Shown: positions 48,662 through 59,499 of the stretch, in pieces
How positions within the stretch are numbered: the first letter of the stretch is position 1
Layout of the letters: every line of letters starts with the position of its first letter
Sequence record: MN342151.1
Origin: Escherichia phage vB_EcoM_3HA14
Length of the DNA: 64,000 nt
Reading direction: 5' to 3' (one strand)
Position numbers and translations under genes: made by a program
Notes under the pieces: generated by a model
The model's input: only the letters and a program-made list of their open reading frames with translations
Told to the model about the DNA's origin: nothing
Databases searched by the model: none

Positions 48662-49329
48662 TTATGGGACACCTACTGAAGAAGAGTTGGAAGAACTTAA
48701 CAGATATGGTTCCCCATCTGAAGAGGAAGAGAAAGAACTCCGAAGAATGGGAAGCAATTACTAAGAAATGCTTTAAGGATTTGATAGAGATGAAAAAGTT
48801 TAAACTTGACAGGAAGTATCTGGTACTGAGTGTGAATGATATTAACACTTATCTGTCAGAGGGTGAGCAAGAGTATCTTAATAACATTGTTGAAATACTC
48901 TACAATGCACGTATAGAGGATTGTAAAGACCAACTTGAAGGTATCTTTATCAAGAAGTCTTATCCGTTCTATGAAGATACTTTGAAGAAACTTGAGATGT
49001 ATGTTAAGCAGCAGAACCGTAAAGAGTTCTCTATGATTTCTCTTGGTGGACAACAAATGCTGGTTATGGAAGATATAAACCCTAAAAGAACCAACAAAGG
49101 TGTTTGTATCAAGGTCACAGGTAAAGAAGAATTTGTTGAATATGACATACTCAGACACATTATAGATGGTTTGGGTGCTGTACTGAACATGAATGAATAC
49201 CATATTAGTTCACACCCGATTAAGGGTGACCAGATAATGATTCAGGTAAGAGAACGTCATAATGGGTTCACACACTTCTTCCAGACTTCTAAAACTTCAT
49301 TGCAAACTATGCTTAGTGAAGTGATGTAA
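48658..49329 (+). CDS. hypothetical protein (223 aa)
   Basis: Last gene of + block; followed by terminator. Confidence 0.45.
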   Translation: MIMGHLLKKSWKNLTDMVPHLKRKRKNSEEWEAITKKCFKDLIEMKKFKLDRKYLVLSVNDINTYLSEGEQEYLNNIVEILYNARIEDCKDQLEGIFIKKSYPFYEDTLKKLEMYVKQQNRKEFSMISLGGQQMLVMEDINPKRTNKGVCIKVTGKEEFVEYDILRHIIDGLGAVLNMNEYHISSHPIKGDQIMIQVRERHNGFTHFFQTSKTSLQTMLSEVM

Positions 49330-49337
49330 AACTATAC

Positions 49338-49361
49338 AGCCCCTTAATTGGGGCTTTTATT
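49338..49361 (+). terminator. rho-independent terminator closing the + strand block
   Basis: AGCCCC-TTAATT-GGGGCT followed by TTTATTT. Confidence 0.6.
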
Positions 49362-49364
49362 TAG

Positions 49365-50870
49365 TAAAATTTACGAAATTTATAATTTTTATAAAATTTG
49401 GGATTCACTCCGTTCATCTTGGGTCACCATGATATGTGATAAAATATCTATACCCCTTCTAAACACCCTTTCTAAGCATCATCTCTATATAGTATTATAT
49501 AGTATCTATATAGCCTCTTAGTCCCTAAATAGTGCTCTCTATATAGCCCTCTATAAAGCCTTCTAAGCCTCCCATTAATCAACCCTATACAATCACCTTC
49601 CTAACCTCTTCATAGCCCCTTAGAAGCCCCTATACTCATCTTAATCTCTAGGTAAACGATAGTACCCTATATAGCAGAATCACTAGGTATTACTAAGCCT
49701 CTATATAGACTGTTATATAGCACTAAACAGGTATTCCCTGTAAATGCTTATCCTACAAGGTCTAACACGGTACTAACAAGGTCTCTTATAAGCCTGTTAA
49801 TTCCTGTTTTATATAAGATAGTGTATAGATAGTTATTCAGAATTATAAAATTTTTATAAAATAGACTAGGTAGGTTACTTTTTAGGTTCTTTGGAGAATC
49901 TGAAAAATATCTACAGAGTGTGTATATCTGCTTGGTAGCCCTTAACAGCCCTGTAACATCCCCTTTGCAAAATCTTAAAATATCATTAACAATCTCTTAA
50001 CAACTCTCCCAAGCTCTTAACATCTCTTCAAAGTTCTTAACAGTCTCTTAACAGAACTAACAAGAGCTTAACCATTCTGTAACATTACTAACAAGAGTCT
50101 AACAAGTTGCTTATAAGTTGCTAAATAGTTAAATCTTAAGAGTTATTTTGTTAAGATAATTAACAAGATGCTAACAAGTTCTAAACCTTTTTAACAGTCT
50201 CTTAACATGGTCACTATCTCTTGGTCTATAGTTCCCTTCCTCTTCTTAGTGATTCTCTATAAAGCCCTCTTAAAAGCTCTCTGTAGCTCTGTATAGCCTC
50301 TTCTAAGCTTCTCCCTAGTAACTACACCCCAACTACCTGTATAGCTCTTTATAGGGCTTTCTAGGGGCTTATACAGGGACTTCAAAGAGTCTAACAAGCT
50401 TTTAACATACCACTAACAAGGATTTAACAAGGGGCTAACAAGTCTCTAATAAGCATAACTATGTAGCATTTGTTAAGATTTTGTTAAGAGAATGTAAAGG
50501 GGGCTAACTTTTACGTTACTTTTAAGGTTCTTTTACGTTACTTTGAAGACTCCATAACATACTTTAAAGCTATTATCAAGCCCCTTTGTAACCATTCACA
50601 AGATACTAACGAGATAATAAAGCTTATACCCTTATAAGATTCTTTTAAGGCTCTAGAAAGCTCTATAAAGGGCTTTTAAGAGTAGGTTAATATGATTGCT
50701 TAAGATGAGATGATAAGCCCGTATAGAGCGTTATAGAGCGTTTTAGGGATTGCCCTTCCCTTTCGGGTTATGGGCTTATATTTAAGGGAATTTATAGTTG
50801 ATTTGATAAGAGGATATAGAGTAAGCTATAGAGTTATTGTTCTAAATGTCTGGTAAGATTCTAGGAAGAC
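49365..50870. other. about 1.5 kb ORF-free, repeat-dense non-coding region
   Basis: No ORF of 60 aa or more on either strand. Dense in short reiterated words: CTATATAG palindromes, TAACAAG, CTCTTAACA (about 7 copies in 49980-50060), CTATAAAGCCCTCT; AATTATAAAATTTTTATAAAAT near-palindrome at about 49376 and 49840. Flanked by convergent terminators. Confidence 0.6.
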
Positions 50871-50872
50871 GT

Positions 50873-50897
50873 AAAAAAGCCCCATCTAAGGGGCTGT
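50873..50897 (-). terminator. rho-independent terminator closing the - strand small-gene block
   Basis: On - strand: AGCCCC-TTAGATG-GGGCT followed by TTTTTT. Confidence 0.6.
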
Positions 50898-50936
50898 AAA
50901 GGTGTCTGGGGCTATTTGCCCCGTTGCGGCGACTTG

Positions 50937-51188
50937 TTAGTTATTGAAGCCGTCAACTTCATAGTAAAGCGTGATAAGAGAATCACCCCAATAGTAAGAG
51001 GATTTGCCATCCTTTAAGACTTCTTGTTTTACTTCTTTCCAGAACCACTCAGATTGATTGTAGTCCTGAATAGTTGCTTTTAGACACATATCAACCATGC
51101 CAAAAACATCGCCAGTTCCAACCATATCAAATTTAACATCTAATACATGGAAGCCAAAATTGTTAACAGTTGCGTGGATAGTAGCCAT
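50937..51188 (-). CDS. hypothetical small protein (83 aa)
   Basis: ORF immediately after a conserved leader cassette. Confidence 0.5.
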   Translation of the reverse strand: MATIHATVNNFGFHVLDVKFDMVGTGDVFGMVDMCLKATIQDYNQSEWFWKEVKQEVLKDGKSSYYWGDSLITLYYEVDGFNN

Positions 51189-51253
51189 TTTCAGATTCTC
51201 CAGTTTAGGAATTTAGGTTAGTGGGGAAGTCTCCCTCCCCGTTGAAAGTAATA

Positions 51254-51517
51254 TTAATTCATTGCTGCATAAGTTGCAAGTCTTTTTTCATTGTATTTTG
51301 TAAGAATCTCACAAGATAAAACGTCATACTTTGCAACGGCTTCAGATTTAGTTAAACCAAAATGGCTTACAATTTCACCATTCATGAATCCGACTACTTC
51401 ATAAGATTCTGCGATGATTTCACCGTTGAACCAATCACTTTCAATACGTTTGCAAAGTTGGATATCTTCTTTGTCAGTACCGATTTGTAACAGGATAGTG
51501 ATTTCTTGATTATTCAT
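51254..51517 (-). CDS. hypothetical small protein (87 aa)
   Basis: ORF directly after leader cassette. Confidence 0.5.
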   Translation of the reverse strand: MNNQEITILLQIGTDKEDIQLCKRIESDWFNGEIIAESYEVVGFMNGEIVSHFGLTKSEAVAKYDVLSCEILTKYNEKRLATYAAMN

Positions 51518-51577
51518 TTTCTAGTCTCCAGTTTAGGATTGTTGGGGAAGGTCATTCCCTCCCCGTTGATAAGTACT

Positions 51578-52105
51578 TTATAGATTTGTGATGATTTCGT
51601 CAAGGGAATTTTCTAAGTTTTTTAAAGATTGTTCGTAAAGCCTAATTCCCCTATTTAATGCTTCCCCTAACGTAATTTTAAAATTAGTTGTTGGGTAGTC
51701 ACTTGTAAAGATGTTTTCCACTTCATAGAGTGGGTATTGTTGGTTACCCGTTCCCATAGCATACATCCCTGTATAATGGATTGCAATAAAAAGATTATGG
51801 GACTTAATAGAGCGCTCATAAGCCATTTTAAAGCGGTTTAACTCGTTTTTAGTTGCCTTAATAGCCATTTCGTGAATTTCTGCGACTATAGCCATATAAT
51901 CATTCAGAATGAGAGAAATAGCCCCCATAAAGTTGTTAGCTGTTACCGCTTTTACATTTGGTCGGTGTACATAAAACTTCTTATCTTCCCCTTTTGTGAT
52001 AACTGCAAAAACTTTGCTCTTTAAGGTAAATTCCCAAGTATCTTTACAAGGCTTGCTCATCACTTCACGGCTACGGATTGCATTAACAGCATTAAACTTA
52101 TTCAT
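51578..52105 (-). CDS. hypothetical protein (175 aa)
   Basis: ORF directly after leader cassette. Confidence 0.5.
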   Translation of the reverse strand: MNKFNAVNAIRSREVMSKPCKDTWEFTLKSKVFAVITKGEDKKFYVHRPNVKAVTANNFMGAISLILNDYMAIVAEIHEMAIKATKNELNRFKMAYERSIKSHNLFIAIHYTGMYAMGTGNQQYPLYEVENIFTSDYPTTNFKITLGEALNRGIRLYEQSLKNLENSLDEIITNL

Positions 52106-52169
52106 TCTAGATTCTCCAGTTTAGGAATTTTGTTTAGTGGGGAAGTTTCCCTCCCCGTTGATGAATACT

Positions 52170-52310
52170 TTACTTGTTTTGATTCTGCATTGCAAGTAGT
52201 TTTTTATCAAAAACTTTATCTGAGATTTCACCAATGATGAGCATTGCTAATGGCAACACAACAGAAACAATCATACCGCAAAGGATAGGGTTTTTAATGA
52301 TATCTAGCAT
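52170..52310 (-). CDS. small membrane protein (46 aa)
   Basis: Not in ORF track. Hydrophobic product MLDIIKNPILCGMIVSVVLPLAMLIIGE...; C-terminus ...LAMQNQNK identical to the end of gene 55622..55969; preceded by a truncated cassette. Confidence 0.35.
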   Translation of the reverse strand: MLDIIKNPILCGMIVSVVLPLAMLIIGEISDKVFDKKLLAMQNQNK

Positions 52311-52506
52311 TTTGTGATTCTCCAGTTTAGGAAGTTGCCTTTTGAAGATACTATATAGATATGATTAGACCTTTGCAAGTACTTTTTACGCTTATCTATA
52401 AAGAATCTATTAAGTTAATCCCTTTTAGATAAACCCCCTCGAACAAAGTTACACTTGTCAAGGGGCATTGTCAATAGTTTTTCAAAAGATTTTTATAAGT
52501 TGTTGA

Positions 52507-52848
52507 TTAGCTTATAAAGATTTTTTCTGGCTTAACATAGGTTAATGACTGTTTTTTAAGCAAATCAGACCAAATGAGCGCGGCAATGTGACTATATCCC
52601 TTTTCTCTTAACTCCTGCATAGCTGATTTGCGAGTTTCGAAACGTGTAGCATAGTATTCAGTGTTAAGGGTAGTTTTATTCCCTTCATTGTCAACATGTA
52701 CAATCTGCATCACTTGAAACGGGCTTACATCTTCTCCCCTGTTCCATTGCTCAAAGTACTTGAGACACTGCATAGGTTTCATTTTGTCGTTAACTTGGGT
52801 AGACCATGACGAATTTTCTTTATCGGTGATAATTGTTACATAGGCCAT
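52507..52848 (-). CDS. hypothetical protein (113 aa)
   Basis: ORF after long-type cassette. Confidence 0.5.
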   Translation of the reverse strand: MAYVTIITDKENSSWSTQVNDKMKPMQCLKYFEQWNRGEDVSPFQVMQIVHVDNEGNKTTLNTEYYATRFETRKSAMQELREKGYSHIAALIWSDLLKKQSLTYVKPEKIFIS

Positions 52849-52933
52849 TTTCAGATTCTCCAGTTTAGGATTGTTGGTAAAGCTCTTTCTCTGGGGCTTA
52901 AGATACTAGCTTTTAAACCCCATGTAAAGCACT

Positions 52934-53131
52934 TTAATAAATTCTATCCATCAAATTATTCACGGCCATAATTGCATTATCTTTGAAGTGTGGATGACTG
53001 CTATTCTGTGAGAATAGTATTTCTCCATTGTATACTATTTTTAGGTCTATCTTTGAACCTTCCATGTTAAGGTTACACTCTACACCTTTTAAACACCACA
53101 AGGTAGAAAGTTTTTGCATCAGTGATAACAT
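52934..53131 (-). CDS. hypothetical small protein (65 aa)
   Basis: ORF after long-type cassette. Confidence 0.45.
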   Translation of the reverse strand: MLSLMQKLSTLWCLKGVECNLNMEGSKIDLKIVYNGEILFSQNSSHPHFKDNAIMAVNNLMDRIY

Positions 53132-53222
53132 TTTAGATTCTCCAGTTTAGGATTGTTGGTAAAGCTCTTTATCTGGGGCTTATCTTATCTAACTATAAAC
53201 CCCATGTAAAGCACTTTATTAG

Positions 53223-53444
53223 TTATTTGTAGTAATAGTATGTAAAATCATTTATCAGGCTTCCAGCCTCATCATTATACTGCTTATGACTAGCCAGATA
53301 ACCGCCATTAGCTAGAATTTCATCAATCAACTTTTTAGCGTCATCGTTGGGAATTCTAACAGGGTTATTAAACGGCTGTAAATAGGTACGACGAACATTT
53401 GAGAATTTAAAATCAATGGTTTTTACGTTAAGAACTTGCAACAT
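53223..53444 (-). CDS. hypothetical small protein (73 aa)
   Basis: ORF-track start at 53522 reads through the cassette in frame; true start taken as the ATG at 53442-53444 that abuts the cassette, as in all other copies. Confidence 0.45.
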   Translation of the reverse strand: MLQVLNVKTIDFKFSNVRRTYLQPFNNPVRIPNDDAKKLIDEILANGGYLASHKQYNDEAGSLINDFTYYYYK

Positions 53445-53522
53445 TTTTTGAATCTCCAGTTTAGGATTGTTGGGATGTTTCCCGTTGATGAATACTTTAC
53501 TTTCTTGCGTTTTCAGTGTCAA

Positions 53523-53753
53523 CTACTTTTCTATAAGAATCTCATATTCACCATTCACACTATCAAAGTAAATACCTTCATCATCTTCTGACTTATAGTA
53601 ACATTGGATATCATCCGATGTTGGGTAGTCTTGCCTTGCTATCTGACAGGCAACAATAGCATTATTTTCGCTACCTGTAAACTCTTCTAAACCTTTAAAG
53701 TCACATTGTGAACCATTGCAGATAGATAAGATAAGATAGATTGTTGTAAGCAT
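53523..53753 (-). CDS. hypothetical small protein (76 aa)
   Basis: ORF without its own cassette; N-terminus MLTTIYLILSICNGSQC is hydrophobic and Cys-containing. Confidence 0.4.
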   Translation of the reverse strand: MLTTIYLILSICNGSQCDFKGLEEFTGSENNAIVACQIARQDYPTSDDIQCYYKSEDDEGIYFDSVNGEYEILIEK

Positions 53754-53770
53754 CTTTTAAGCCTCTTGTA

Positions 53771-53793
53771 AGCCCCTGTGCGGGGCTTTTCTA
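53771..53793 (+). terminator. terminator-like hairpin oriented for the + strand, inside the - strand gene island
   Basis: AGCCCC-TGTGC-GGGGCT followed by TTTTCT on the + strand; no T-tract on the - strand. Confidence 0.35.
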
Positions 53794-53816
53794 GTGAACT
53801 GGCATGATTCTATGGT

Positions 53817-54374
53817 TTATGCTGTTAATTCGTTTATAGCCGTTTCTGCTACGTTACATTGCATTGTGTCAAAGATATCACAATATACATTGCTCATCTC
53901 ATCACTACGTTGGACTATTGCCGCAATGTTGCGTAATTCATCCGGTATATAACCCAAGTTCCTATTATTCAGGTTAGGGACAAAGAAAGGCGCATACATA
54001 GCATTAAATTCAGTTGTGTAAACCTTTTTAATCCATTCTTTATCGAAATATTCTGTAAAGCTTGCTACGTCGCTCATGTTCTCACAGCTCCAGTCATCTT
54101 GTAAATCATCTTCTGGAATATCCAGTTCCAAGATAACAAGCTTTTGTGACTTCATTTGATAGGCTGCTGTAATGCTTGCGCTATCAAGCGCGTTTCTAAT
54201 ACCTTCATCTATGATTTGTTCGTCATCCAGATTTTCTACATCATAGAACTTACTAACAGGGTAGACATAAAAACATCCATCCATATCAGAGCAATTCCAG
54301 ACTCCTGATGGTTTATCACCGCCATTAATAAGGTTTACAAAGTTTTCTTGTGTAGTACCATGAAAGCATTTCAT
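53817..54374 (-). CDS. hypothetical protein (185 aa) with N-terminal H-G-T and G-x-F-Y motifs
   Basis: MKCFHGTT...GCFYVYP pattern is reminiscent of ADP-ribosyltransferase or Tpt1-like folds; speculative. Preceded by long-type cassette. Confidence 0.45.
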   Translation of the reverse strand: MKCFHGTTQENFVNLINGGDKPSGVWNCSDMDGCFYVYPVSKFYDVENLDDEQIIDEGIRNALDSASITAAYQMKSQKLVILELDIPEDDLQDDWSCENMSDVASFTEYFDKEWIKKVYTTEFNAMYAPFFVPNLNNRNLGYIPDELRNIAAIVQRSDEMSNVYCDIFDTMQCNVAETAINELTA

Positions 54375-54458
54375 TTTTGATTCTCCAGTTTAGGATTGTT
54401 GGTAAAGCTCTTTATCTGGGGCTTATCTTAGCTAACTATAAACCCCATGTAAAGGACT

Positions 54459-54707
54459 TTATTTAGTTTTCTTTGTAAAGATTAGTTTAACGGCAACAGT
54501 TGGTAACTCTTCAATACTTGTGAACAAAGTCACTTTTTGAGTCTTGACATTATAGCCATACTTTGAACCATAAGCCGTAAAACGGTTTACAATGTAACTG
54601 TAAGTTTTTGCAGTGTTATCTGGCATATGATATAAAAACGGCTTGCCAAGGTTATCAAGTTGTGTTAAGAGTCGGCAAGTGTCAGGGATATTCAACATAT
54701 TAAACAT
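54459..54707 (-). CDS. hypothetical small protein (82 aa)
   Basis: ORF after short-type cassette. Confidence 0.5.
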   Translation of the reverse strand: MFNMLNIPDTCRLLTQLDNLGKPFLYHMPDNTAKTYSYIVNRFTAYGSKYGYNVKTQKVTLFTSIEELPTVAVKLIFTKKTK

Positions 54708-54792
54708 TTTCAGATTCTCCAGTTTAGGATTGTTGGGGCTTATAACTTGCCCCGTTGATGAGTACTCTACTACTATGCTTTTGCAATGTCAA

Positions 54793-55200
54793 TCAAATCT
54801 CTGAATAAATTGCATCGCAGATTTCACGGAAAACTTCCACCGGTAAGTTACGCTGTAACCATGTTGCAAAGAAATCAGCAATTGCAAAGTTTGCATCAAA
54901 ATCAACACATAGCCACACTTTAACAGCAAATCTAAACATTTTCAAGTCAAGTTCTTTATTCATTACTTTTGACTTTGACAGCATTTCCTTCATCTCATAT
55001 TGAGCACCGTCAATTATAGCTCCTGCTGCTACATCTTGCAAGGATTCTTTAAGCTGTTTTGTGTCTACTACTGCGCCCTGAATTTTACCGATGATATTAT
55101 GTAGTGTTTCGTCTGGTGCTGCTGATGTTACAATGTTGATGCGGTTAATGGTCAAACGTGCTTTCAAAATTGCAACTTCTTTGTGATTAACATTAGTCAT
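54793..55200 (-). CDS. hypothetical protein (135 aa)
   Basis: ORF after long-type cassette. Confidence 0.5.
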   Translation of the reverse strand: MTNVNHKEVAILKARLTINRINIVTSAAPDETLHNIIGKIQGAVVDTKQLKESLQDVAAGAIIDGAQYEMKEMLSKSKVMNKELDLKMFRFAVKVWLCVDFDANFAIADFFATWLQRNLPVEVFREICDAIYSEI

Positions 55201-55289
55201 TTTCTAGTCTCCAGTTTAGGTTAGTTTTAGATAAATCTCTTTATCTGGGGCTATCTTAGCAACTTGATAACCCCATGTAAAGCAATTTA

Positions 55290-55562
55290 TTAGACTAAAT
55301 ACAATTTTTTACCGCTAACAATAATATAACTTACACCACTATTACTATAAACATCTTGATAAATTCTGCGTAACTTTCCAAGGTATCGAACTTTCCAAGA
55401 TGTAGGAATTTTCTTTCCATATCCTGTAGCGGTTTTTTGTAAACCTGCTACTTGCCAATCTAATAGGTGCTGTTCTGCTCTTAACTCTTCAAAGTTTAAT
55501 ACACCGTCTACATAGTGTTTTAAAGTTACGTTCAAAGTGCGACCGTCATTAGTAGTATACAT
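55290..55562 (-). CDS. hypothetical small protein (90 aa)
   Basis: ORF after short-type cassette. Confidence 0.5.
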   Translation of the reverse strand: MYTTNDGRTLNVTLKHYVDGVLNFEELRAEQHLLDWQVAGLQKTATGYGKKIPTSWKVRYLGKLRRIYQDVYSNSGVSYIIVSGKKLYLV

Positions 55563-55621
55563 TTTCAGATTCTCCAGTTTAGGATTGTTGGGGCTTCTAT
55601 CTTGCCCCGTTGATGAATACT

Positions 55622-55969
55622 TTACTTGTTTTGATTCTGCATTGCAAGCTCTTTTTTATTAATTTCTTGTGCTATCACGATATAATAATCTTTTAGGTTT
55701 ATGTCTTGAATTGACTCTAGAAGTATGTCATAATCACTGATTAATTTAAAATCACCGTCTAGAATGTTATCAATCCGGTATGTCTCTGCTTTAAATCGAA
55801 AGCTCATCTCTAAACGTTTCAATTGTTCTAAGCTCAAACGCTCTAAAAAGCCCCGTACAAGATTTATTTTTAAATCCCTTGTAAGTGCCTTATTAGCTAT
55901 ACTGTGCGCTTGCAAAGCTTTATAGAGCGCCACAATAGAGATAAAAATAGCAGTGTATGTGATTAACAT
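55622..55969 (-). CDS. membrane-anchored protein (115 aa)
   Basis: N-terminal TM-like MLITYTAIFISIVALY; C-terminal ...ELAMQNQNK shared with the 46-aa gene at 52170..52310. Confidence 0.45.
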   Translation of the reverse strand: MLITYTAIFISIVALYKALQAHSIANKALTRDLKINLVRGFLERLSLEQLKRLEMSFRFKAETYRIDNILDGDFKLISDYDILLESIQDINLKDYYIVIAQEINKKELAMQNQNK

Positions 55970-56259
55970 TTGTTTTTACCTTTGTGGAATAGTTTACCAG
56001 TGTGACTAATTTCATATGAATCAACCATATCTCTAGTAGTCTTAATAGATGACTTATTAGTGTTATCATATATATCAACCTGAAGCAATGGTTTTTTGTA
56101 TTCTTTGCAAAAGTTCCATACACAAATTATTACTTCTTTTTTGTTAATCTTTCCATGATACCACTCTACGGCTTCAGAAGTACGGCGCATGGATTCAATG
56201 AATTGGATATTGCTTAATAGCTGGCTTAATTTAGTTCTAACGTTTGCGGCAATAAACAT
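55963..56259 (-). CDS. hypothetical protein (98 aa)
   Basis: ORF after long-type cassette. Confidence 0.5.
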   Translation of the reverse strand: MFIAANVRTKLSQLLSNIQFIESMRRTSEAVEWYHGKINKKEVIICVWNFCKEYKKPLLQVDIYDNTNKSSIKTTRDMVDSYEISHTGKLFHKGKNKC

Positions 56260-56343
56260 TTTAGGTTCTCCAGTTTAGGATTGTTTGTAAAGCTCTTTAT
56301 CTGGGGCTATCTTATCAACTTGATAACCCCATGTAAAGCACTT

Positions 56344-56856
56344 TTAGATATTAAAGATATTCATAACAGAATCTTTCAAGGCTTCTAAACGTTCCATTAC
56401 TTCAGATTCTCCATCGGAGTTCGACACTTCCTCTTCTAATCGTGATTCTAAATCTTCCCCGTCAAGATAGCACCAATCGAAGCCATAAGCAAGAGAAAAG
56501 CTATTTAATACTGTATTACCTTCTTTATCTTCTACCTTTGCAAATAGCACGTAGCTGTTAGCCTCTAAATCTCTTTGTAATTCATCTTGTAAGCTCTTGT
56601 AAGCCTCTATAGATGGATTTTCGCGGCCTTGTTTAGCATAATCACTCATCAATTGTGAAAGGCTGTAATGCTGTGGAATTGCATATTTGTACCCGTTACG
56701 CTCTGGATTTTTAAGTTTGATTGTAACCCCGCCTTTGTGCTCATCGGTAAACTTCCAATTCTCCACACAATGGGATGCTTCACAAATATTAACAGCTTCA
56801 TAGATGATAGTGAATTTTTCTTTTTGGACTTCAAAGGTAGCTTCAACAAAATTCAT
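56344..56856 (-). CDS. hypothetical acidic protein (170 aa)
   Basis: ORF after long-type cassette. Confidence 0.5.
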   Translation of the reverse strand: MNFVEATFEVQKEKFTIIYEAVNICEASHCVENWKFTDEHKGGVTIKLKNPERNGYKYAIPQHYSLSQLMSDYAKQGRENPSIEAYKSLQDELQRDLEANSYVLFAKVEDKEGNTVLNSFSLAYGFDWCYLDGEDLESRLEEEVSNSDGESEVMERLEALKDSVMNIFNI

Positions 56857-56947
56857 TTTAGATTCTCCAGTTTAGGACTATTGGTTAGTAAAGCTCTTTA
56901 TCTGGGGCTTATATTATCTAACTATAAACCCCATGTAAAGCACTTTA

Positions 56948-57205
56948 TCAGATTAAATTGTCAGTTAATGATAAGTGCATTTTATAACCTTTCTTCGTGT
57001 AGACGTTAGTTCTACCGATTGCTTTTACACCTTTGAAAAGGTCATAGGAACTACGTTTTAAAGTAATTTCCTTATCACATTTTACGCCCCATCTTACAGC
57101 AGATTCTTTTCCGTTGTCAACCACTTTACCATTTAGTTTTTTAGCAGTTGCGCGAGCGTCATCACGAGATTTTGCAGATACAATGATGTTTTTGATAGTA
57201 GCCAT
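56948..57205 (-). CDS. hypothetical small basic protein (85 aa)
   Basis: ORF after long-type cassette. Confidence 0.5.
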   Translation of the reverse strand: MATIKNIIVSAKSRDDARATAKKLNGKVVDNGKESAVRWGVKCDKEITLKRSSYDLFKGVKAIGRTNVYTKKGYKMHLSLTDNLI

Positions 57206-57296
57206 TTTTGATACTCCAGTTTAGGTTATTGTTTGGTAAAGCTCTTTATCTGGGGCTTATCTTATCTAACTATAAACCCCATGTAAAGGACTTTAT

Positions 57297-57677
57297 TTAG
57301 TTAATTTTGAAAACTGTAACGTAGCCGTCACTACCAATAGTTTGAGATACTCCAGCTTTCTCTACATCATACCCCATTTTATCAAGATGGTACATTGCAT
57401 CTTCATACCCATATTTACCGCCTTGATAGCGTCTTTTTTCACAGCGTATCACAGTTTTACCACGTCCTGCAATAGCATTTATTATAGCTTTTTCACCGGA
57501 TAGTGTACCGTCAAGCATAGTAGCTTTGTAGTGGTTAATACGGTTACCATTAACATCATACTTAAAATTGTAAGCGTGAACAACAATTATTTTTCCTTTG
57601 AAGTTTTCTTTCATAGTTTCCTCTAAGATACTACGAAAGTTTTCTTTGTTGATAAATTTAGGCGCACGATATTTCAT
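57297..57677 (-). CDS. hypothetical protein (126 aa)
   Basis: ORF after long-type cassette. Confidence 0.5.
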   Translation of the reverse strand: MKYRAPKFINKENFRSILEETMKENFKGKIIVVHAYNFKYDVNGNRINHYKATMLDGTLSGEKAIINAIAGRGKTVIRCEKRRYQGGKYGYEDAMYHLDKMGYDVEKAGVSQTIGSDGYVTVFKIN

Positions 57678-57761
57678 TTTAGATTCTCCAGTTTAGGATT
57701 GTTGGTAAAGCTCTTTATCTGGGGCTTAAGATACCAGCTTTTAAACCCCATGTAAAGTACT

Positions 57762-57923
57762 TTATGCAATAATTTTTATAAAATCTTTCATGGTTATTTT
57801 GTCGCTATTTGTAAGGGCTATACAGTCATTACCCATAGCAGACTTATAGAGATAGAAGACTTTACCAATTTTTGGGTATCCGTCTAAATCTTTGTATTGT
57901 ATTAAATCGTTTTCTTTAATCAT
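57762..57923 (-). CDS. hypothetical small protein (53 aa)
   Basis: Not in ORF track. ATG at 57921-57923; product MIKENDLIQYKDLDGYPKIGKVFYLYK...; no cassette of its own. Confidence 0.3.
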   Translation of the reverse strand: MIKENDLIQYKDLDGYPKIGKVFYLYKSAMGNDCIALTNSDKITMKDFIKIIA

Positions 57924-57935
57924 TGTCAAGCCTTT

Positions 57936-58142
57936 TTAAACGTTGTAATAATAAATTGCTGTATGCCTTGTGTAATGCCTTGTGTGAGTTGTCAAATAAC
58001 AATCAGACCTGATTGACGTATCAACATATTCATCAAAATCCTTTTCTGAGATACGTTGCCAAACATCACAAATTAGCATATAGAAACGACGTTTATTTGT
58101 TTTGTTGTTGTCAACAATCATTAACTCACGTTGATATAACAT
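57936..58142 (-). CDS. hypothetical small protein (68 aa)
   Basis: First gene of the island; preceded by short-type cassette at 58143-58200. Confidence 0.45.
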   Translation of the reverse strand: MLYQRELMIVDNNKTNKRRFYMLICDVWQRISEKDFDEYVDTSIRSDCYLTTHTRHYTRHTAIYYYNV

Positions 58143-58393
58143 TTTTAGATTCTCCAGTTTAGGATTGTTGGGATGTTTCCCGTTGATGCAAATACTATAA
58201 GACTGGATTTATGAAGTCAACAAAAATTTTTAAAATATTTTTGATGTTTCGTGAATAGAACGCACGTATGCGGGTACACTAAAACAGAAACCTAGTCAAG
58301 AATTATTTTTGAGTTCTCTACAAATTTCTCTCTTGACTTTTGGGAGGAAGGGGAGTAAGAGGGGATGGTGGGGCTGGTTTCCTACAGCTACCT

Positions 58394-58600
58394 ACCTGCA
58401 CAATTTGAAAATGAATTTTCCCTTTGGAGTCCAACTGCATCTGCACAGATTGAAAATGAAAAAGCTCTTTGGAGTCTAAACCTGCACAAATTTGAAATGA
58501 ATTTTCCCTTTGGAGTTCAGCTAAAGAAATCTGTCCAGAGTTCTATGCAACTATACCTGCACAAATTTAAAATGAAAAAGCCCTCCTTACCTGAGATTTT
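58394..58600. repeat. four direct repeats of about 40-45 bp in intergenic region
   Basis: CCTGCACA(A/G)ATTTGAAAATGAA-(TTTTCCC or AAAAGCTC)-TTTGGAGT at about 58394, 58440, 58481, 58555; two alternating subtypes. ORF 58365..58643 across them is probably not coding. Confidence 0.65.
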
Positions 58601-58623
58601 TAAACTCAAACTTTGGAGGGCTT
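58573..58623 (-). terminator. possible terminator after macro-domain gene (large loop)
   Basis: On - strand: AAGCCCTCC ... GGAGGGCTT 9-bp stem with about 28-nt loop, followed by TTTTTCATTTT. Confidence 0.3.
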
Positions 58624-58647
58624 GTCTATGTCTAGCTAGGTGACTTA

Positions 58648-59499
58648 TTAGTTACGTGCTTCAACATAGCTTACGTTTTCATGTGTGATATAATCTTCTG
58701 CAAACTCTTCTGTAGTCGCATTGATATATACACTTGCATCATCACTAAACGTTACCGCTCTGTGGTGGTGGCCTTGTAACGGGTGGGTAACTTGAGCGTT
58801 ACTTCGATTGTACTTCTCAACCGGAGGGTAACTGGTGTGTACCTTGCCATTACGCTTCACCTTGAGGGTAACTTTATCCTTGCCTACCACAGCAACACCA
58901 TCAAAGTATTGAGGCTCACTGAAGTTCTCCCAACCAGTAACAGGATTAGTCAACTGACTGTACATCTTATCTTCATAGACATACATATAAACGTCAACAT
59001 CCTTCATAGTCTGGTTGATAATGGACAGTACAGCCATGCTATCAAGACCACCAATCCCTGCACCAACCATTGGAAGCCCAACTTTCTTAAGTTGGTTAAC
59101 TTTACAGTAGTTATTAAGACGCTGTAAAGCTGCTTCTAAGGCGTTGTATCGTGCATCTTTGCCAGTGATAACCTGAGTGTAAAGGTTAGCAATTCGACCC
59201 TGCTTAAAACGTGCTACAGAGATGTTACCAAGCATTAGATGCTTAGGGTTATGATTTTCACCACCTACTGTAGCATAAACTTCAGCGTCAGTTTCATAAG
59301 CTTTTGGGTAGCGTTTAGCAATTGTTGCTGCGATACCTGCACCCATCAAGTTCATGCAGTTACAGCCGTGACCAATGATATCAAACTTCTTACCATCAAA
59401 GTCTTTAAAGATATCACCTTTAATAATTTTTACGATACCCATATTAGTAATGCTCCCAACGTTCGTTATCTTCAGATGGTTTAACTCGGTTACCTTCAT
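58648..59499 (-). CDS. macro-domain protein (TARG1/DarG-like ADP-ribose-binding or hydrolase fold) with C-terminal extension
   Basis: GDIF...DIIGHGCNCMNLMGAGIAATIAKRYP and VGLPMVGAGIGGLD match the Gly-rich ADP-ribose-binding loops of macro domains; about 110 aa extra C-terminal region with a His-rich patch. Confidence 0.6.
   Translation of the reverse strand: MKVTELNHLKITNVGSITNMGIVKIIKGDIFKDFDGKKFDIIGHGCNCMNLMGAGIAATIAKRYPKAYETDAEVYATVGGENHNPKHLMLGNISVARFKQGRIANLYTQVITGKDARYNALEAALQRLNNYCKVNQLKKVGLPMVGAGIGGLDSMAVLSIINQTMKDVDVYMYVYEDKMYSQLTNPVTGWENFSEPQYFDGVAVVGKDKVTLKVKRNGKVHTSYPPVEKYNRSNAQVTHPLQGHHHRAVTFSDDASVYINATTEEFAEDYITHENVSYVEARN

Follow-up and report, generated by a model that had tools for sequence, protein, structure and literature searches.

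Leader cassettes with promoter and stem-loop signals precede most of the small genes of an island in a Felix O1-like phage

Gene content and borders of the island

The window, that is the whole 64,000-nt stretch of DNA that was analysed (MN342151.1), is from a Felix O1-like myovirus (Ounavirinae), and Shigella phage Sf13 is 97.9% identical to it. An island of small ORFs, the counterpart of ORF15-23 in Felix O1, lies between two terminators on its minus strand.

50937..58142, minus strand: island of 19 small ORFs of 46-185 aa between two terminators (ORF list and translations)
53817..54374, minus strand: island gene, 185 aa, predicted ADP-ribosyltransferase-like fold
50878..50922, minus strand: end of the island, with an orphan cassette-type hairpin (CAAC)GGGGCaaataGCCCC(AGA) at 50908-50922, then an intrinsic terminator at 50878-50895 (sequence and terminator scan)
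58575..58620, minus strand: terminator of the upstream operon and upstream border of the island, CCCTCC...GGAGGGCTTTTTC, homologous to the published Felix O1 terminator t13

A leader cassette stands in front of 16 of the 19 ORFs, the exceptions being 57762-57923, 55622-55969 and 53523-53753; the initial annotation had given about 18 small genes, each behind a leader. Its statement that the gene bodies are unrelated was borne out, as the 19 ORFs fell into 19 different PHROG families, all of unknown function. No Pfam family was found in them (the single match was sub-threshold), and the sole functional hint among the island products, for which host-takeover or anti-defence roles had been suggested, comes from 53817-54374. 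The orphan hairpin sits after the last gene and has neither a promoter nor a ribosome site, and the terminator at 50878-50895 was the only canonical intrinsic terminator that the scan found on the minus strand. This arrangement of hairpin and terminator also occurs in Felix O1, including its terminator t23, which has been published together with t13 (PMC3185647). The terminator at 58575..58620 was not called by the scan tool.

A repeated core within two classes of cassette

A repeated element directly 5' of small minus-strand genes had been described, and we confirmed it: the 12-mer CCTAAACTGGAG occurs 16 times without mismatch, always on the minus strand and only between 51198 and 58163, against a chance expectation of 0.32, and none of 100 shuffles reached 16 copies. 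Every copy lies 8-9 nt 5' of the ATG of an ORF. The full 30-mer of the initial annotation has eight copies at ≤ 3 mismatches (0 expected), and exact copies of CTTTACATGGGG and CATCAACGGGR are confined to the island. Each core copy belongs to a larger unit, in which a sigma-70-type promoter with 17 bp between its hexamers and a fixed translation start region are always present and a hairpin usually is. In class A (n = 8), TTTACA-N17-TAnnnT lies inside a 58-59 nt three-helix hairpin of 21-22 bp, an inverted repeat TAAAGTGCTTTACATGGGG...CCCCAGATAAAGAGCTTTA of which the GGGG...CCCC stem is the inner portion. In class B (n = 7), a TTGACA-like promoter, again with 17 bp between the -35 and TAnnnT and often within the 3' end of the preceding ORF, lies 5' of a short GGGG...CCCC hairpin. 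The location of the hairpin relative to the promoter depends on the class, while its place between stop codon and ribosome site does not change. The earlier claim of a GGGG...CCCC hairpin in each copy therefore holds for 15 copies but not for the unit at 52311-52378, which has a promoter and no hairpin. Likewise, TTTACA does mark the long type (class A), but the supposed short type is not short, having its own TTGACA-like promoter upstream.

58143..58220, minus: class B, first in the island; -35 TTGACT 58215-58220; -10 TAGTAT 58192-58197; hairpin GGGAAACATCCC 58170-58181; core 58152-58163; ATG 58142
57678..57764, minus: class A; -35 TTTACA 57751-57756; -10 TATCTT 57728-57733; long hairpin 57706-57764; core 57686-57697; ATG 57677
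57206..57295, minus: class A; -35 57282-57287; -10 TAAGAT 57259-57264; long hairpin 57237-57295; core 57214-57225; ATG 57205
56857..56947, minus: class A; -35 56934-56939; -10 TAATAT 56911-56916; long hairpin 56889-56947; core 56865-56876; ATG 56856
56260..56345, minus: class A; -35 56332-56337; -10 TAAGAT 56309-56314; long hairpin 56288-56345; core 56268-56279; ATG 56259; one parent of the Sf14 chimeric cassette
55563..55647, minus: class B; -35 TTGCAA 55642-55647; -10 TAAAGT 55619-55624, holding the stop codon of ORF 55622-55969; hairpin 55590-55608; core 55572-55583; ATG 55562; 5' half encodes the tail ...LAMQNQNK
55201..55289, minus: class A; -35 55276-55281; -10 TAAGAT 55253-55258; long hairpin 55232-55289 with compensatory outer pair U-A; core 55209-55220; ATG 55200
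54708..54792, minus: class B; -35 TTGACA 54787-54792; -10 TAGAGT 54764-54769; hairpin 54735-54753; core 54717-54728; ATG 54707
54375..54461, minus: class A; -35 54448-54453; -10 TAAGAT 54425-54430; long hairpin 54403-54461; core 54383-54394; ATG 54374
53445..53522, minus: class B; -35 TTGACA 53517-53522; -10 TAAAGT 53494-53499; hairpin GGGAAACATCCC 53472-53483; core 53454-53465; ATG 53444
53132..53218, minus: class A; -35 53205-53210; -10 TAAGAT 53182-53187; long hairpin 53160-53218; core 53140-53151; ATG 53131
52849..52936, minus: class A; -35 52923-52928; -10 TATCTT 52900-52905; long hairpin 52878-52936; core 52858-52869; ATG 52848
52311..52378, minus: hairpin-less; TTGCAA-N17-TATAGT 52350-52378; core 52320-52331; ATG 52310; preceded by a gene-free gap of 196 nt (52311-52506)
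52106..52195, minus: class B; -35 TTGCAA 52190-52195; -10 TAAAGT 52167-52172, holding the stop codon of ORF 52170-52310; hairpin 52139-52156; core 52114-52125; ATG 52105; 5' half encodes the tail ...LAMQNQNK
51518..51603, minus: class B; -35 TTGACG 51598-51603; -10 TAAAGT 51575-51580, holding the stop codon of ORF 51578-52105; hairpin 51544-51564; core 51526-51537; ATG 51517
51189..51279, minus: class B; -35 TTGCAA 51274-51279; -10 TAATAT 51251-51256, holding the stop codon of ORF 51254-51517; hairpin 51223-51240; core 51198-51209; ATG 51188

Promoter signals and early expression

All 16 cassettes carry a -35-like hexamer, a spacer of exactly 17 bp and a TAnnnT hexamer. An independent promoter scan called 8/8 class A cassettes and 5/8 others (four class B and the hairpin-less one), and the promoters at the island head (58192-58220) were strong in it. 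Among 32 distinct class A variants from 13 phages, TAnnnT was kept 17-18 bp from TTTACA in every one, with nine different -10 hexamers and a loop that was otherwise variable. An A-tract lies 5' of the class B -35. The class A hexamers match the consensus at only 9/12 positions, and the GC-clamped hairpin over the class A spacer could impede the promoter instead of aiding it. Felix O1 ORFs 16, 20, 21 and 22 are located behind cassettes of the same kind, and published RT-PCR showed that they peak at 5 min (PMC3185647), which supports the description of the island as early. Since a literature search found no transcript 5'- or 3'-end data for any Ounavirinae phage, we infer promoter use from sequence and low-resolution RT-PCR.

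Folding and covariation of the hairpins

The folding check proposed in the initial annotation showed that all eight class A copies share one three-helix fold (dG -21 to -25 kcal/mol, z -3.6 to -4.6) with one 1x1 and one 2x2 internal loop. Class B hairpins have 4-8 bp stems and their folding z-scores were not significant (-0.5 to -2.6). In 38 distinct class A variants, 93.1% of cells were paired, a share that fell to 86.5% after shuffling and to 30-58% with slid partners. Compensatory changes were found at four class A pairs, including GC to UA or AU in the outer helix, and the covariation score of the stems was equalled by 0/500 shuffles. Because of two conserved U.G pairs, the class A sense strand folds more stably (-22.6 kcal/mol) than the antisense strand (-17.3 kcal/mol). 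No T-run follows any of the cassette hairpins, so the standard rule does not predict a terminator role for them, the lone canonical terminator being that at 50878-50895.

Exchange of genes among related phages

In comparisons with ten related phages, 35 of 40 unique homology breakpoints fell inside cassettes (21.7% expected; binomial p about 1e-18), a statistic that shows gene plus cassette to be the unit of change and does not address mechanism, because BLAST alignments cross conserved intergenic DNA and end where genes differ. A chimeric cassette forms the junction of a three-gene indel (a deletion) in Sf14, with the crossover within CCCCAGATAAAGAGCTTTAC, a 20-nt identical stretch, and the gene at 52934-53131 occupies a different position in ESh22. 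Together with the breakpoints, these two cases support the cassette-mediated recombination suggested earlier. The relatives carry 10 to 16 cassette copies each, and blastn with the cassette at 53132..53218 as query matched 287 phage records. At least 80% of the island was covered in only 5/246 matching phage records, against 207/302 and 25/279 for two control stretches of equal length, in keeping with the term hyperplastic that had been applied to it.

Leaders resembled a paralogous leader of their own genome (0.93) more than the leader of the SUSP2 orthologue (0.81), and the paralogue was closer in 11/12 genes, a comparison biased to paralogues because the best of 15 was taken. Felix O1 and an Erwinia phage each have a core sequence specific to their lineage. 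In divergent relatives the copies are more conserved than flanking coding sequence (0.82 versus 0.705 in the Felix O1 comparison), so the low conservation that the initial annotation had named as grounds for rejecting its reading was not found.

Proposed function of the cassettes

We consider it likely that in this Felix O1-like phage the repeats belong to the PeSL (promoter-early stem-loop) type of composite regulatory cassette and also serve as portable homology. Each cassette fills the entire space between two genes and has three parts. The promoter would serve the sigma-70 RNA polymerase of the host and make each gene transcribable alone straight after infection. The second part is a stem-loop on the sense strand, which in class A encloses the spacer and -10 of the promoter; since transcription from the cassette itself should begin just past the inner 3' arm (predicted at about 53174-53176 for 53132-53218), the class A hairpin would form only in read-through RNA. 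The class B hairpin (4-8 bp) lies some 3-6 nt away from where the transcript of its own cassette is predicted to begin (about 55611-55614 for 55563-55647). Most likely the hairpins insulate neighbouring genes. Read-through RNA could be attenuated or processed at them, which would leave the message upstream with a protective 3' hairpin; the class B hairpin would additionally shield the 5' end. The third part is the fixed translation start region AACAATCCTAAACTGGAGAATCTAAA-ATG. Since these 60-90 bp are repeated between unrelated genes, always in the same orientation, they offer portable homology, and recombination between copies may delete, insert, replace or move units of cassette and gene and may also keep the copies within one genome alike. 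The anatomy, the conserved promoter and stem signals and the traces of recombination among relatives were observed directly, whereas the activity of the promoters, the role of the hairpins and the way in which genes are exchanged are inferred. That three of the island genes lack a cassette counts against this reading.

This layout clearly exemplifies a design that was already known, because gene gain, loss and movement at such units have already been described in T4-like phages. Felix O1 repeats were published in 2010, and a 26-bp leader repeat was reported for phage Mordin in 2015 (PMC4611695). The PeSLs of T4-like RB49 and phi1, whose promoter and terminator activities have been measured (PMC2839356), have the same design as the island cassettes, although sequence homology is not detectable; those of RB49 read TTGACA-GGGG..CCCC-TATACT...GGAGAATCAAA-ATG, with variants that carry TAAGAT inside the hairpin.

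Class A could instead be mainly a processing site, like the RNase III sites between T7 early genes, at which a long early transcript from near 58190 is cut into messages of one gene each, every one of them protected by a 3' hairpin, the hexamers being incidental or minor. The interrupted 21-22 bp hairpin (1x1 and 2x2 internal loops) is substrate-like in size, covariation and sense-strand asymmetry indicate a role in RNA, the class A hairpin would exist solely in read-through RNA, and the island head (58192-58220) carries strong promoters. However, processing has no need of a TAnnnT fixed 17-18 bp from TTTACA in 32/32 variants despite a variable loop, the 4-8 bp stems of class B fall short of what RNase III requires while their cassettes carry near-consensus promoters, and the RB49 cassettes, which share the design, do act as promoters; we regard this account as possible but doubtful. 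It is unlikely that the cassettes are primarily translational 'start-associated sequences', with promoters and hairpins secondary, as put forward by the Mordin authors (PMC4611695) by analogy with cluster K mycobacteriophages (PMC3203893). Here the invariant 26-mer around the Shine-Dalgarno would bind a factor of phage or host, either a protein or an RNA, by which translation is turned on or off jointly for all early genes, and the CCTAAACT tract, apart from GGAG and its spacing, would affect the level or timing of translation. The 12-mer, invariant in 16/16 copies, does reach well past the 4-nt GGAG able to pair with 16S rRNA, and the tract 5' of the Shine-Dalgarno changes along with it in three lineages (UCC..GGA, UCCU..AGGA and CCUU..AAGG), but gene conversion among copies could equally yield invariance, no candidate factor has been identified, and the conserved -35/-10 geometry and stem covariation are left unexplained. 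This account is compatible with PeSL-type cassettes and not opposed to them.

The many near-identical copies, the inverted repeat of the long type and the associated indels might also suggest a selfish miniature mobile element, or a target of a homing or site-specific recombination enzyme, that spread via intergenic spaces with regulation as a by-product; the PeSL authors suggested a recombination protein recognising GGGG...CCCC (PMC2839356). This is very unlikely: all copies point the same way and occupy exactly the interval from stop codon to ATG, the inspected junctions have no target-site duplications, 0/19 island ORFs match a Pfam recombinase or transposase family, the Sf14 crossover in a 20-nt identical stretch fits ordinary homologous recombination, and purifying selection acts on the promoter and stem signals across genera. 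It is least probable of all that the hairpins are promoters like those of phage N4, used by a phage-encoded RNA polymerase that recognises hairpins in DNA. The resemblance is general only (small GC-clamped hairpins before early genes), whereas stems (4-10 bp) and loops (4-14 nt) vary widely in size, good sigma-70 hexamers accompany every copy, and the Felix O1 paper (PMC3185647) does not report a phage RNA polymerase gene.

The shared protein tail

An identical nine-residue tail, ELAMQNQNK, had been noted in two island products and taken to suggest recombination. Only eight residues (LAMQNQNK) are identical, the two ends being ...KKELAMQNQNK and ...KKLLAMQNQNK. This tail is not by itself evidence of recombination, because what is translated there, where the upstream ORF ends, is the class B promoter: the DNA that encodes the tail consists of the A-tract, TTGCAA, the spacer and TAAAGT with the stop codon inside.

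Small genes of the island

The segment 50900-58300 matched Shigella phage Sf13 over its full length with 97.9% identity, and matches were found in 246 phage records, all of about 85-90 kb and with Escherichia, Salmonella, Shigella or Citrobacter as hosts. These records belong to the Felix O1 group of the Ounavirinae (Mooglevirus, Suspvirus and Felixounavirus), and the Felix O1 counterpart of the island is ORF15-ORF23, bounded by the published terminators t13 and t23. The island itself comprises 19 ORFs of 46-185 aa. The initial annotation had described the gene bodies as unrelated, and this was borne out, since Pfam gave no family at significance for any of the 19 products and PHROG placed each ORF in a separate family, all of unknown function. 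PDB sequence searches with the 185-aa and 170-aa products returned no match, and an Rfam search of 49000-59000 on both strands (E <= 1) gave a single chance-level miRNA match and nothing else. A functional hint was obtained for only one product, the 185-aa protein encoded by 53817-54374, whose homologues are confined to this phage group and which has an invariant N-terminal FHGT, Y36 and E83. This protein is 66% identical to Bas63 gp107, which was termed Tpt1-like in a knockout screen and was more important on one host strain. In addition, a gene for a macro-domain protein lies immediately upstream of the island; the Macro domain was the only Pfam family found among the ten neighbouring proteins scanned, a set also considered as a possible source of a RegB-like nuclease acting on GGAG. 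Together, these features of the 185-aa product and the macro-domain gene would fit an early host-modifying role.

A predicted promoter cassette precedes most island genes

The invariant core CCTAAACTGGAG occurs 16 times in the window (0.32 expected by chance), always on the - strand, only within 51198-58163, and every copy lies 8-9 nt ahead of the ATG of an ORF. The 30-mer repeat reported initially was likewise recovered, with 8 copies at <= 3 mismatches and none expected. Each cassette spans the whole gap from the upstream stop codon, which lies in or beside TAAAGT or the -35, to the next ATG, with GGAG placed 8-9 nt 5' of that ATG. Cassette motifs are restricted to 50.9-58.2 kb of the 64-kb window, and the flanking motifs of both cassette classes have exact copies in the island only. 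All 16 cassettes contain a -35-like hexamer, a spacer of exactly 17 bp and TAnnnT, and a consensus promoter scan independently recovered 13 of these promoters. A stem-loop is present in 15 of the 16, lying over the spacer and -10 in the long-hairpin type (class A, 8 copies) and past the -10 in the short-hairpin type (class B, 7 copies). The exceptions, namely the one cassette without a hairpin and the three island ORFs without a leader, are as follows.

Island features that depart from the common layout
52311-52378, - strand: hairpin-less cassette, TTGCAA-N17-TATAGT
57762-57923, - strand: ORF without leader, starting 12 nt past the preceding stop
55622-55969, - strand: ORF without leader, overlapping the 3' end of the preceding ORF
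53523-53753, - strand: ORF without leader, with its own Shine-Dalgarno behind a GCCCC...GGGGC hairpin

The hairpin 5' of the last of these ORFs, GCCCCgcacaGGGGC at 53772-53786, is of opposite polarity; on the + strand TTTTCT comes directly after it, yet + strand genes are absent nearby. The hairpin-less cassette is preceded by a gene-free gap of 196 nt (52311-52506) holding a CCCC...GGGG inverted repeat and a pair of TTGACA hexamers 7 nt apart, and a similar gap lies between ORF21 and ORF22 of Felix O1.

Class A cassettes form a three-helix hairpin

The 5' part of the eight class A copies reads [stop]AAAGTGC-TTTACA-T-GGGGTTTAT...(TAAGAT/TATCTT/TAATAT)AAGCCCC and is continued by -AGATAAAGAGCTTTACC-AACAAT-CCTAAACTGGAG-AATCTAAA-ATG. 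The GGGG...CCCC hairpin noted initially for this type is real, but it is merely the inner helix of a larger structure: because TAAAGT.CTTTA upstream is complementary to TAAAG.GCTTTA downstream, the whole forms a hairpin of 58-59 nt with three helices of 6 + 5 + 10 bp (21-22 bp in all) separated by two internal loops. The inverted repeat pairs CTTTACATGGGG (- strand) with CTTTATCTGGGG (+ strand). On folding, the same structure was recovered in 8 of 8 copies (dG -21 to -25 kcal/mol, z -3.6 to -4.6). We also considered the TAAAGT at the class A 5' end as a second -10, and rejected it: a conserved -35 is absent upstream (by eye, three copies), and the outer hairpin arm together with the stop codon accounts for the hexamer better.

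Predicted class B promoters can encode the tail of the preceding protein

The seven class B copies have the layout A-tract-TTGACA/TTGCAA/TTGACG/TTGACT-N17-TAAAGT/TAGAGT/TAGTAT/TAATAT, followed by -ATTCATCAAC-GGGG(loop)CCCC-AACAAT-core-ATG with stems of 4-8 bp. This type is not a short one, as it had seemed initially: it is as long as the long type, with its promoter often reaching into the preceding ORF. Four class B copies share their -10 with the end of the upstream ORF, whose stop codon is the TAA of that hexamer and whose last codons are formed by the -35 and spacer. Two of these ORFs, singled out initially for a common C-terminus, end in KKELAMQNQNK and KKLLAMQNQNK, and their DNA is identical from CTTGCAA through CAACGGGG. 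With the stop inside the -10, the -35 and spacer as final codons and the DNA identical, the shared tail is the promoter read as protein. Being class B promoter DNA, the common tail is not in itself evidence of recombination. Related phages have variants of the tail-encoding promoter DNA at the same place, as found by translating it for comparison.

Cassettes are conserved and the class A stem covaries

To assess conservation, cassettes were collected from the window and eleven Ounavirinae loci (ten Mooglevirus/Suspvirus relatives and Felix O1), which yielded 64 cassettes of class A and 52 of class B, all distinct; an Erwinia phage locus contributed none of either class. That phage has the same layout in other sequence, TTGCAA-A-GGGGTTACGG...TAACCCC with the ribosome site CCCTTATAAAGGAA. 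With one class A copy as query, blastn (E <= 0.001) gave matches at 1487 places, spread over 287 phage records, among them phages of Erwinia and Hafnia that belong to the same subfamily. In divergent relatives, conservation of the intergenic cassettes exceeded that of coding sequence: Felix O1 (0.82 versus 0.705), Silverhawkium (0.866 versus 0.771) and KMM4 (0.878 versus 0.790), while in close relatives the two were about equal.

All 32 distinct class A promoter/hairpin segments carry TAnnnT 17 or 18 bp from TTTACA; nine different TAnnnT hexamers occur among them, and adjoining loop positions vary freely. Constancy of TAnnnT amid a variable loop is the pattern expected of a -10 element. Stem covariation was scored with variants aligned outside-in, using column shuffles and slid partners as controls. 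Among 38 distinct variants, 93.1% of the class A stem cells were paired, compared with 86.5% in shuffles and 30-58% with slid partners, and the covariation score was reached by 0 of 500 shuffles. Compensatory changes were found in four pairs, including GC to UA/AU in the outermost helix. The strands are not equivalent, because U.G occupies two of the pairs, one in 31 and the other in 33 of the 38 variants; folding is therefore more stable for the sense than for the antisense strand (mean -22.6 versus -17.3 kcal/mol). This asymmetry points to a role of the coding strand in single-stranded form, most likely as RNA, rather than to a symmetric protein site in duplex DNA.

In published RT-PCR of Felix O1, ORFs 16, 20, 21 and 22 were among the genes peaking at 5 min (PMC3185647), and a cassette lies ahead of all four. 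Within every cassette core, a tract 5' of the Shine-Dalgarno can pair with it (e.g. 53140-53153), and the two change together in three lineages: UCC..GGA in the window, UCCU..AGGA in the class B copies of Felix O1, and CCUU..AAGG in the Erwinia phage. The examples outside the window are from the comparison loci L011 (2975-3075) and L012 (6597-6700). The pairing could form a small hairpin of 3-4 bp that masks the ribosome site in these three lineages, a weak candidate.

Gene turnover is bounded by cassettes

The island had been proposed to be a hyperplastic region in which cassettes mediate recombination, and comparison with related phages agreed on both points. It was the least contiguous of three equal-length stretches, with coverage of >= 80% in 5 of 246 records, compared with 207 of 302 for the terminase/tRNA region and 25 of 279 for the tail fibre/td region. 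Alignments against ten relatives gave 40 distinct break positions in the island; 35 of these lie in cassettes or <= 3 nt from a gene end (21.7% expected), a count to be read in the knowledge that alignments inevitably cross conserved spacers and end at differing genes. Three of the five exceptional breakpoints are 5 nt within a gene.

Individual genomes illustrate these changes. Sf14 lacks 56344-57675, comprising three genes; its single remaining cassette matches the copy ahead of 57677 in 5' flank and hairpin type, and the copy ahead of 56259 in its TTTACAAAC variant. This cassette is therefore chimeric, which places a crossover within the common CCCCAGATAAAGAGCTTTAC. In Sf18, another gene replaces 54459-54707 between conserved cassettes; Moogle lacks 52170-52310, 52934-53444, 54459-54707 and 56948-57677; and in ESh22 the homologue of 52934-53131 has moved to between the homologues of 51578-52105 and 52170-52310. 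The breakpoint count shows the unit of change, and the chimeric junction is the more direct sign of homologous exchange.

Core copies number 10 to 16 per genome in Mooglevirus and Suspvirus, and Felix O1 has two core sub-types, CCTAAACTGGAG (three copies) and TTAAACTAGGAG (four copies). Over the 45-nt leader, a paralogous leader of the same genome was closer than the orthologue's leader in SUSP2 for 11 of 12 genes (0.93 versus 0.81), which suggests gene conversion; the comparison is biased, however, in that only the best match among 15 paralogues was used. At the end of the Sf14 record (L003, MF327003) there is a second copy of the 52507-52848 homologue with its cassette (1-387 versus 387-773), labelled 'potential duplication' by the depositors. 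We left it uncounted as a recombination event, as it resembles an untrimmed assembly overlap at the opening of the record; it is probably such an overlap, the alternative being a real tandem duplication between cassettes.

Proposed working of the cassettes

We propose that host polymerase would initiate at every cassette. In class A, transcription would start about 7-8 nt past the -10, at the A after CCCC, so that the gene's own message would be without the hairpin and open with the unstructured leader AGAUAAAGAGCUUUACCAACAAUCCUAAACUGGAG. In class B, the predicted start lies 3-6 nt ahead of the hairpin and would give a 5'-terminal stem-loop. The position of the hairpin relative to the promoter thus depends on the class, while its position between the stop codon and the ribosome site is constant. 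Two elements at the downstream end of the island bear on its function.

Elements after the last island gene
50908-50922: orphan hairpin without promoter or ribosome site
50878-50895, - strand: directly past the orphan hairpin, the only canonical terminator found by the terminator scan

Given this constant placement and the orphan hairpin, we think that the hairpin acts on RNA arriving from upstream, where it could cause attenuation, or processing that leaves a protective 3' hairpin. The terminator scan found no T-run 3' of the cassette hairpin at any copy, so classical intrinsic termination is not predicted there. The RB49 elements that we examined likewise have no T-run, and in a published assay an RB49-type stem-loop cut downstream expression like a strong terminator (PMC2839356). 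By analogy with the early-gene sites of T7, the class A hairpin, with its 21-22 bp and two internal loops, is a plausible RNase III substrate.

Superimposing a promoter on a processing or attenuating hairpin may make a gene independent of its position, in that initiation and cleavage would yield one leader (~...CCCC|AGAUAAAG); if true, a gene would be expressed alike wherever recombination places it. We think it unlikely that class A is such a device and that units of promoter, GC-clamped hairpin and ribosome site form a general gene-capture system of virulent enterobacterial myoviruses. Such units may be convergent or exchanged, and are seen in the Ounavirinae, in RB49 and around two island-gene homologues in PVP-SE1.

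The cassettes resemble the promoter-early stem-loops of T4-like phages

Promoter-early stem-loops (PeSLs) are known from the T4-like phages RB49/phi1, PST and nt-1 (Arbiol et al., 2010, PMC2839356; Comeau et al., 2014, PMC4122927). A PeSL extends from the upstream stop codon to the Shine-Dalgarno and ATG and joins a strong sigma-70-like promoter to a GGGG...CCCC stem-loop in any of five positions relative to the promoter (PMC2839356). PeSLs concentrate at the orphan genes of hyperplastic regions; they bring about indels and replacements and give rise to mini-circles (PMC2839356; PMC4122927); promoter activity, terminator activity and mini-circles were demonstrated in RB49/phi1 only (PMC2839356). 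The cassettes have the same elements in the same order, namely a stop codon in an A/T-rich stretch, sigma-70-like -35 and -10, GGGG...CCCC stem-loop, Shine-Dalgarno and ATG; their stem-loop also varies in position (in the spacer, over the -10 or after it), they also cluster in a hyperplastic region among small orphan genes, and related phages differ in segments bounded by the motif, with crossovers inside it. At the sequence level, promoter, stem-loop, stop-to-ATG extent, hyperplastic location and motif-bounded turnover were thus all found.

The start region GGAGAATC(A/T)AAAATG and the in-hairpin -10 TAAGAT recur in RB49. One RB49 element (locus L013) reads aaaaagttgTTGACA-GGGGATCACCGATCCCC-TATACT...GGAGAATCAAtt-ATG, and another, TTGACAgcatatcacGGGAGTAGTAAGATACTCCC, resembles class A in enclosing its -10 TAAGAT in the hairpin. 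The only sequence shared with the RB49 elements is the start region GGAGAATCWAAAATG. RB49 start regions such as CTGGAGAATCAAAA-ATG and GGAGAATCAAA-ATG lie in intergenic regions (e.g. L013 7097, 8247 and 12819) and are close to CTGGAGAATCTAAA-ATG of the window, the cassettes being otherwise unrelated; the two groups could have converged on a start site that works well in E. coli, or one could have passed it to the other. The differences are that the host lineage here is Ounavirinae, not Straboviridae, that the class A -35 is TTTACA where PeSLs have TTGACA, and that class A adds two covarying outer helices (58-59 nt) seen in none of the RB49 copies examined. Blastn with a class A copy (E <= 0.001) found no Krischvirus among the 287 records. 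With other blastn similarity absent and the phage groups unrelated, we regard the cassettes and PeSLs as the same kind of element, not a family by descent. In Salmonella phage PVP-SE1 (L015, NC_016071), an rV5-like member of another subfamily (Vequintavirinae), homologues of 56344-56856 and 55290-55562 lie side by side at 874-1716. As we read their upstream sequences, both are preceded by a promoter-like TTGAC.-N17-TAnnnT, then a GC-rich hairpin and a ribosome site, so the design may be more widespread.

Other known systems share some of these features. T7 has RNase III sites, interrupted hairpins of about two helical turns, between consecutive early cistrons. Host polymerase transcribes these cistrons from strong promoters where the region begins, and cleavage leaves a stabilising 3' hairpin. 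In size, class A, with 21-22 bp and two internal loops, fits the roughly 20-bp interrupted hairpin of such a site, and class B, with 4-8 bp, does not. However, T7 has three promoters at its left end only, compared with one per gene here, and its sites have no embedded promoter or standard ribosome site; to our knowledge, they are not recombination points either. The start-associated sequences (SAS) of cluster K mycobacteriophages are short, strongly conserved and asymmetric, and include a Shine-Dalgarno core (Pope et al., 2011, PMC3203893). All in one orientation, they lie a few nucleotides ahead of the ATG in some of the non-structural genes, which come from different families, and roughly half of them have an inverted repeat of variable spacer upstream (PMC3203893). 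The cassettes share with SAS an asymmetric leader bearing a Shine-Dalgarno near the ATG of unrelated non-structural genes in one orientation. In contrast, the 13-bp SAS consensus GGGATAGGAGCCC is unrelated in sequence, the phages are temperate and unrelated, and a promoter was never proposed for SAS. The arms of the extended element (ESAS) show no RNA covariation, for which reason its authors favour a DNA-binding protein (PMC3203893), whereas class A arms co-vary. N4-type hairpin promoters and a miniature transposon were also considered as readings of the cassettes and rejected.

Earlier reports and significance

Parts of the cassettes had been published. Felix O1 was reported to contain direct repeats of 57 bp and 39 bp (Whichard et al., 2010, PMC3185647), both omitted from the predicted-promoter list of that paper (PMC3185647); we found that the 57-mer CTTTACATGGGGCTTAAAAGTCTGTAAAGTAAGCCCCAGATAAAGAGCTTTACCACT is a class A cassette and that the 39-mer TTGACACTGG...CATCAAC is a class B promoter. 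Similarly, a 26-bp repeat of Mordin was described as 'reminiscent of start-associated sequences', with its role unknown (Guan et al., 2015, PMC4611695), and it corresponds to the cassette leader, annotated as repeat_region in GenBank KT363872. Both papers list the repeats but give no promoter reading, structure or link to gene shuffling (PMC3185647, PMC4611695). In the open-access literature on Felix O1-like phages we found no transcript mapping and no description of promoters with stem-loops; the wV8 paper does not mention the cassette repeats, the paper on the unrelated rV5-like phage rV5 describes no comparable promoter-hairpin units, and in open-access papers we found no PeSL-type interpretation of the Felix O1-group repeats.

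Taken together, the island described in the initial annotation is real and its interpretation was largely right. The layout is the well-characterised PeSL design in a new phage lineage, parts of which were published in 2010 and 2015, and no new kind of system emerges from it. What is new, on the present sequence comparisons, is the predicted promoter in every copy, the covarying, strand-asymmetric three-helix hairpin assigned to class A, the protein tails encoded by promoter DNA, and the comparative evidence of cassette-bounded turnover in the Ounavirinae. These results extend the PeSL idea past T4-like phages; if so, virulent phages would more generally try accessory genes by means of standard regulatory cassettes that are recombination sites as well. 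They also account for the direct repeats that earlier papers recorded in Felix O1 and Mordin, offer in class A a defined co-varying RNA structure that is directly testable, and provide 16 predicted early promoters in a phage group used in biocontrol of Salmonella, E. coli and Shigella. For engineering of these phages, the cassettes mark boundaries where genes can probably be swapped.

Sequences flanking the island

Just upstream of the first island promoter (58342-58597) lie a 32-nt C/T-rich tract (58342-58373, - strand) and four direct repeats of about 43 nt (58394-58597; ACCTGCACAAATTTGAAATGAA...CTTTGGAGT on the + strand), the last of which runs into the upstream operon's terminator. On the other side, immediately past the island, plausible genes are absent from about 1.6 kb (49300-50935), which is conserved in 254 phage records of the group. 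Besides many inverted repeats, it contains dense short repeats of the TAACAAG/CTAACA and CTCTATAnAGC families with 11-bp spacing. This stretch may be an origin, a packaging site or a terminal-repeat region; a terminal repeat of 608 bp has been reported for UAB_Phi87.
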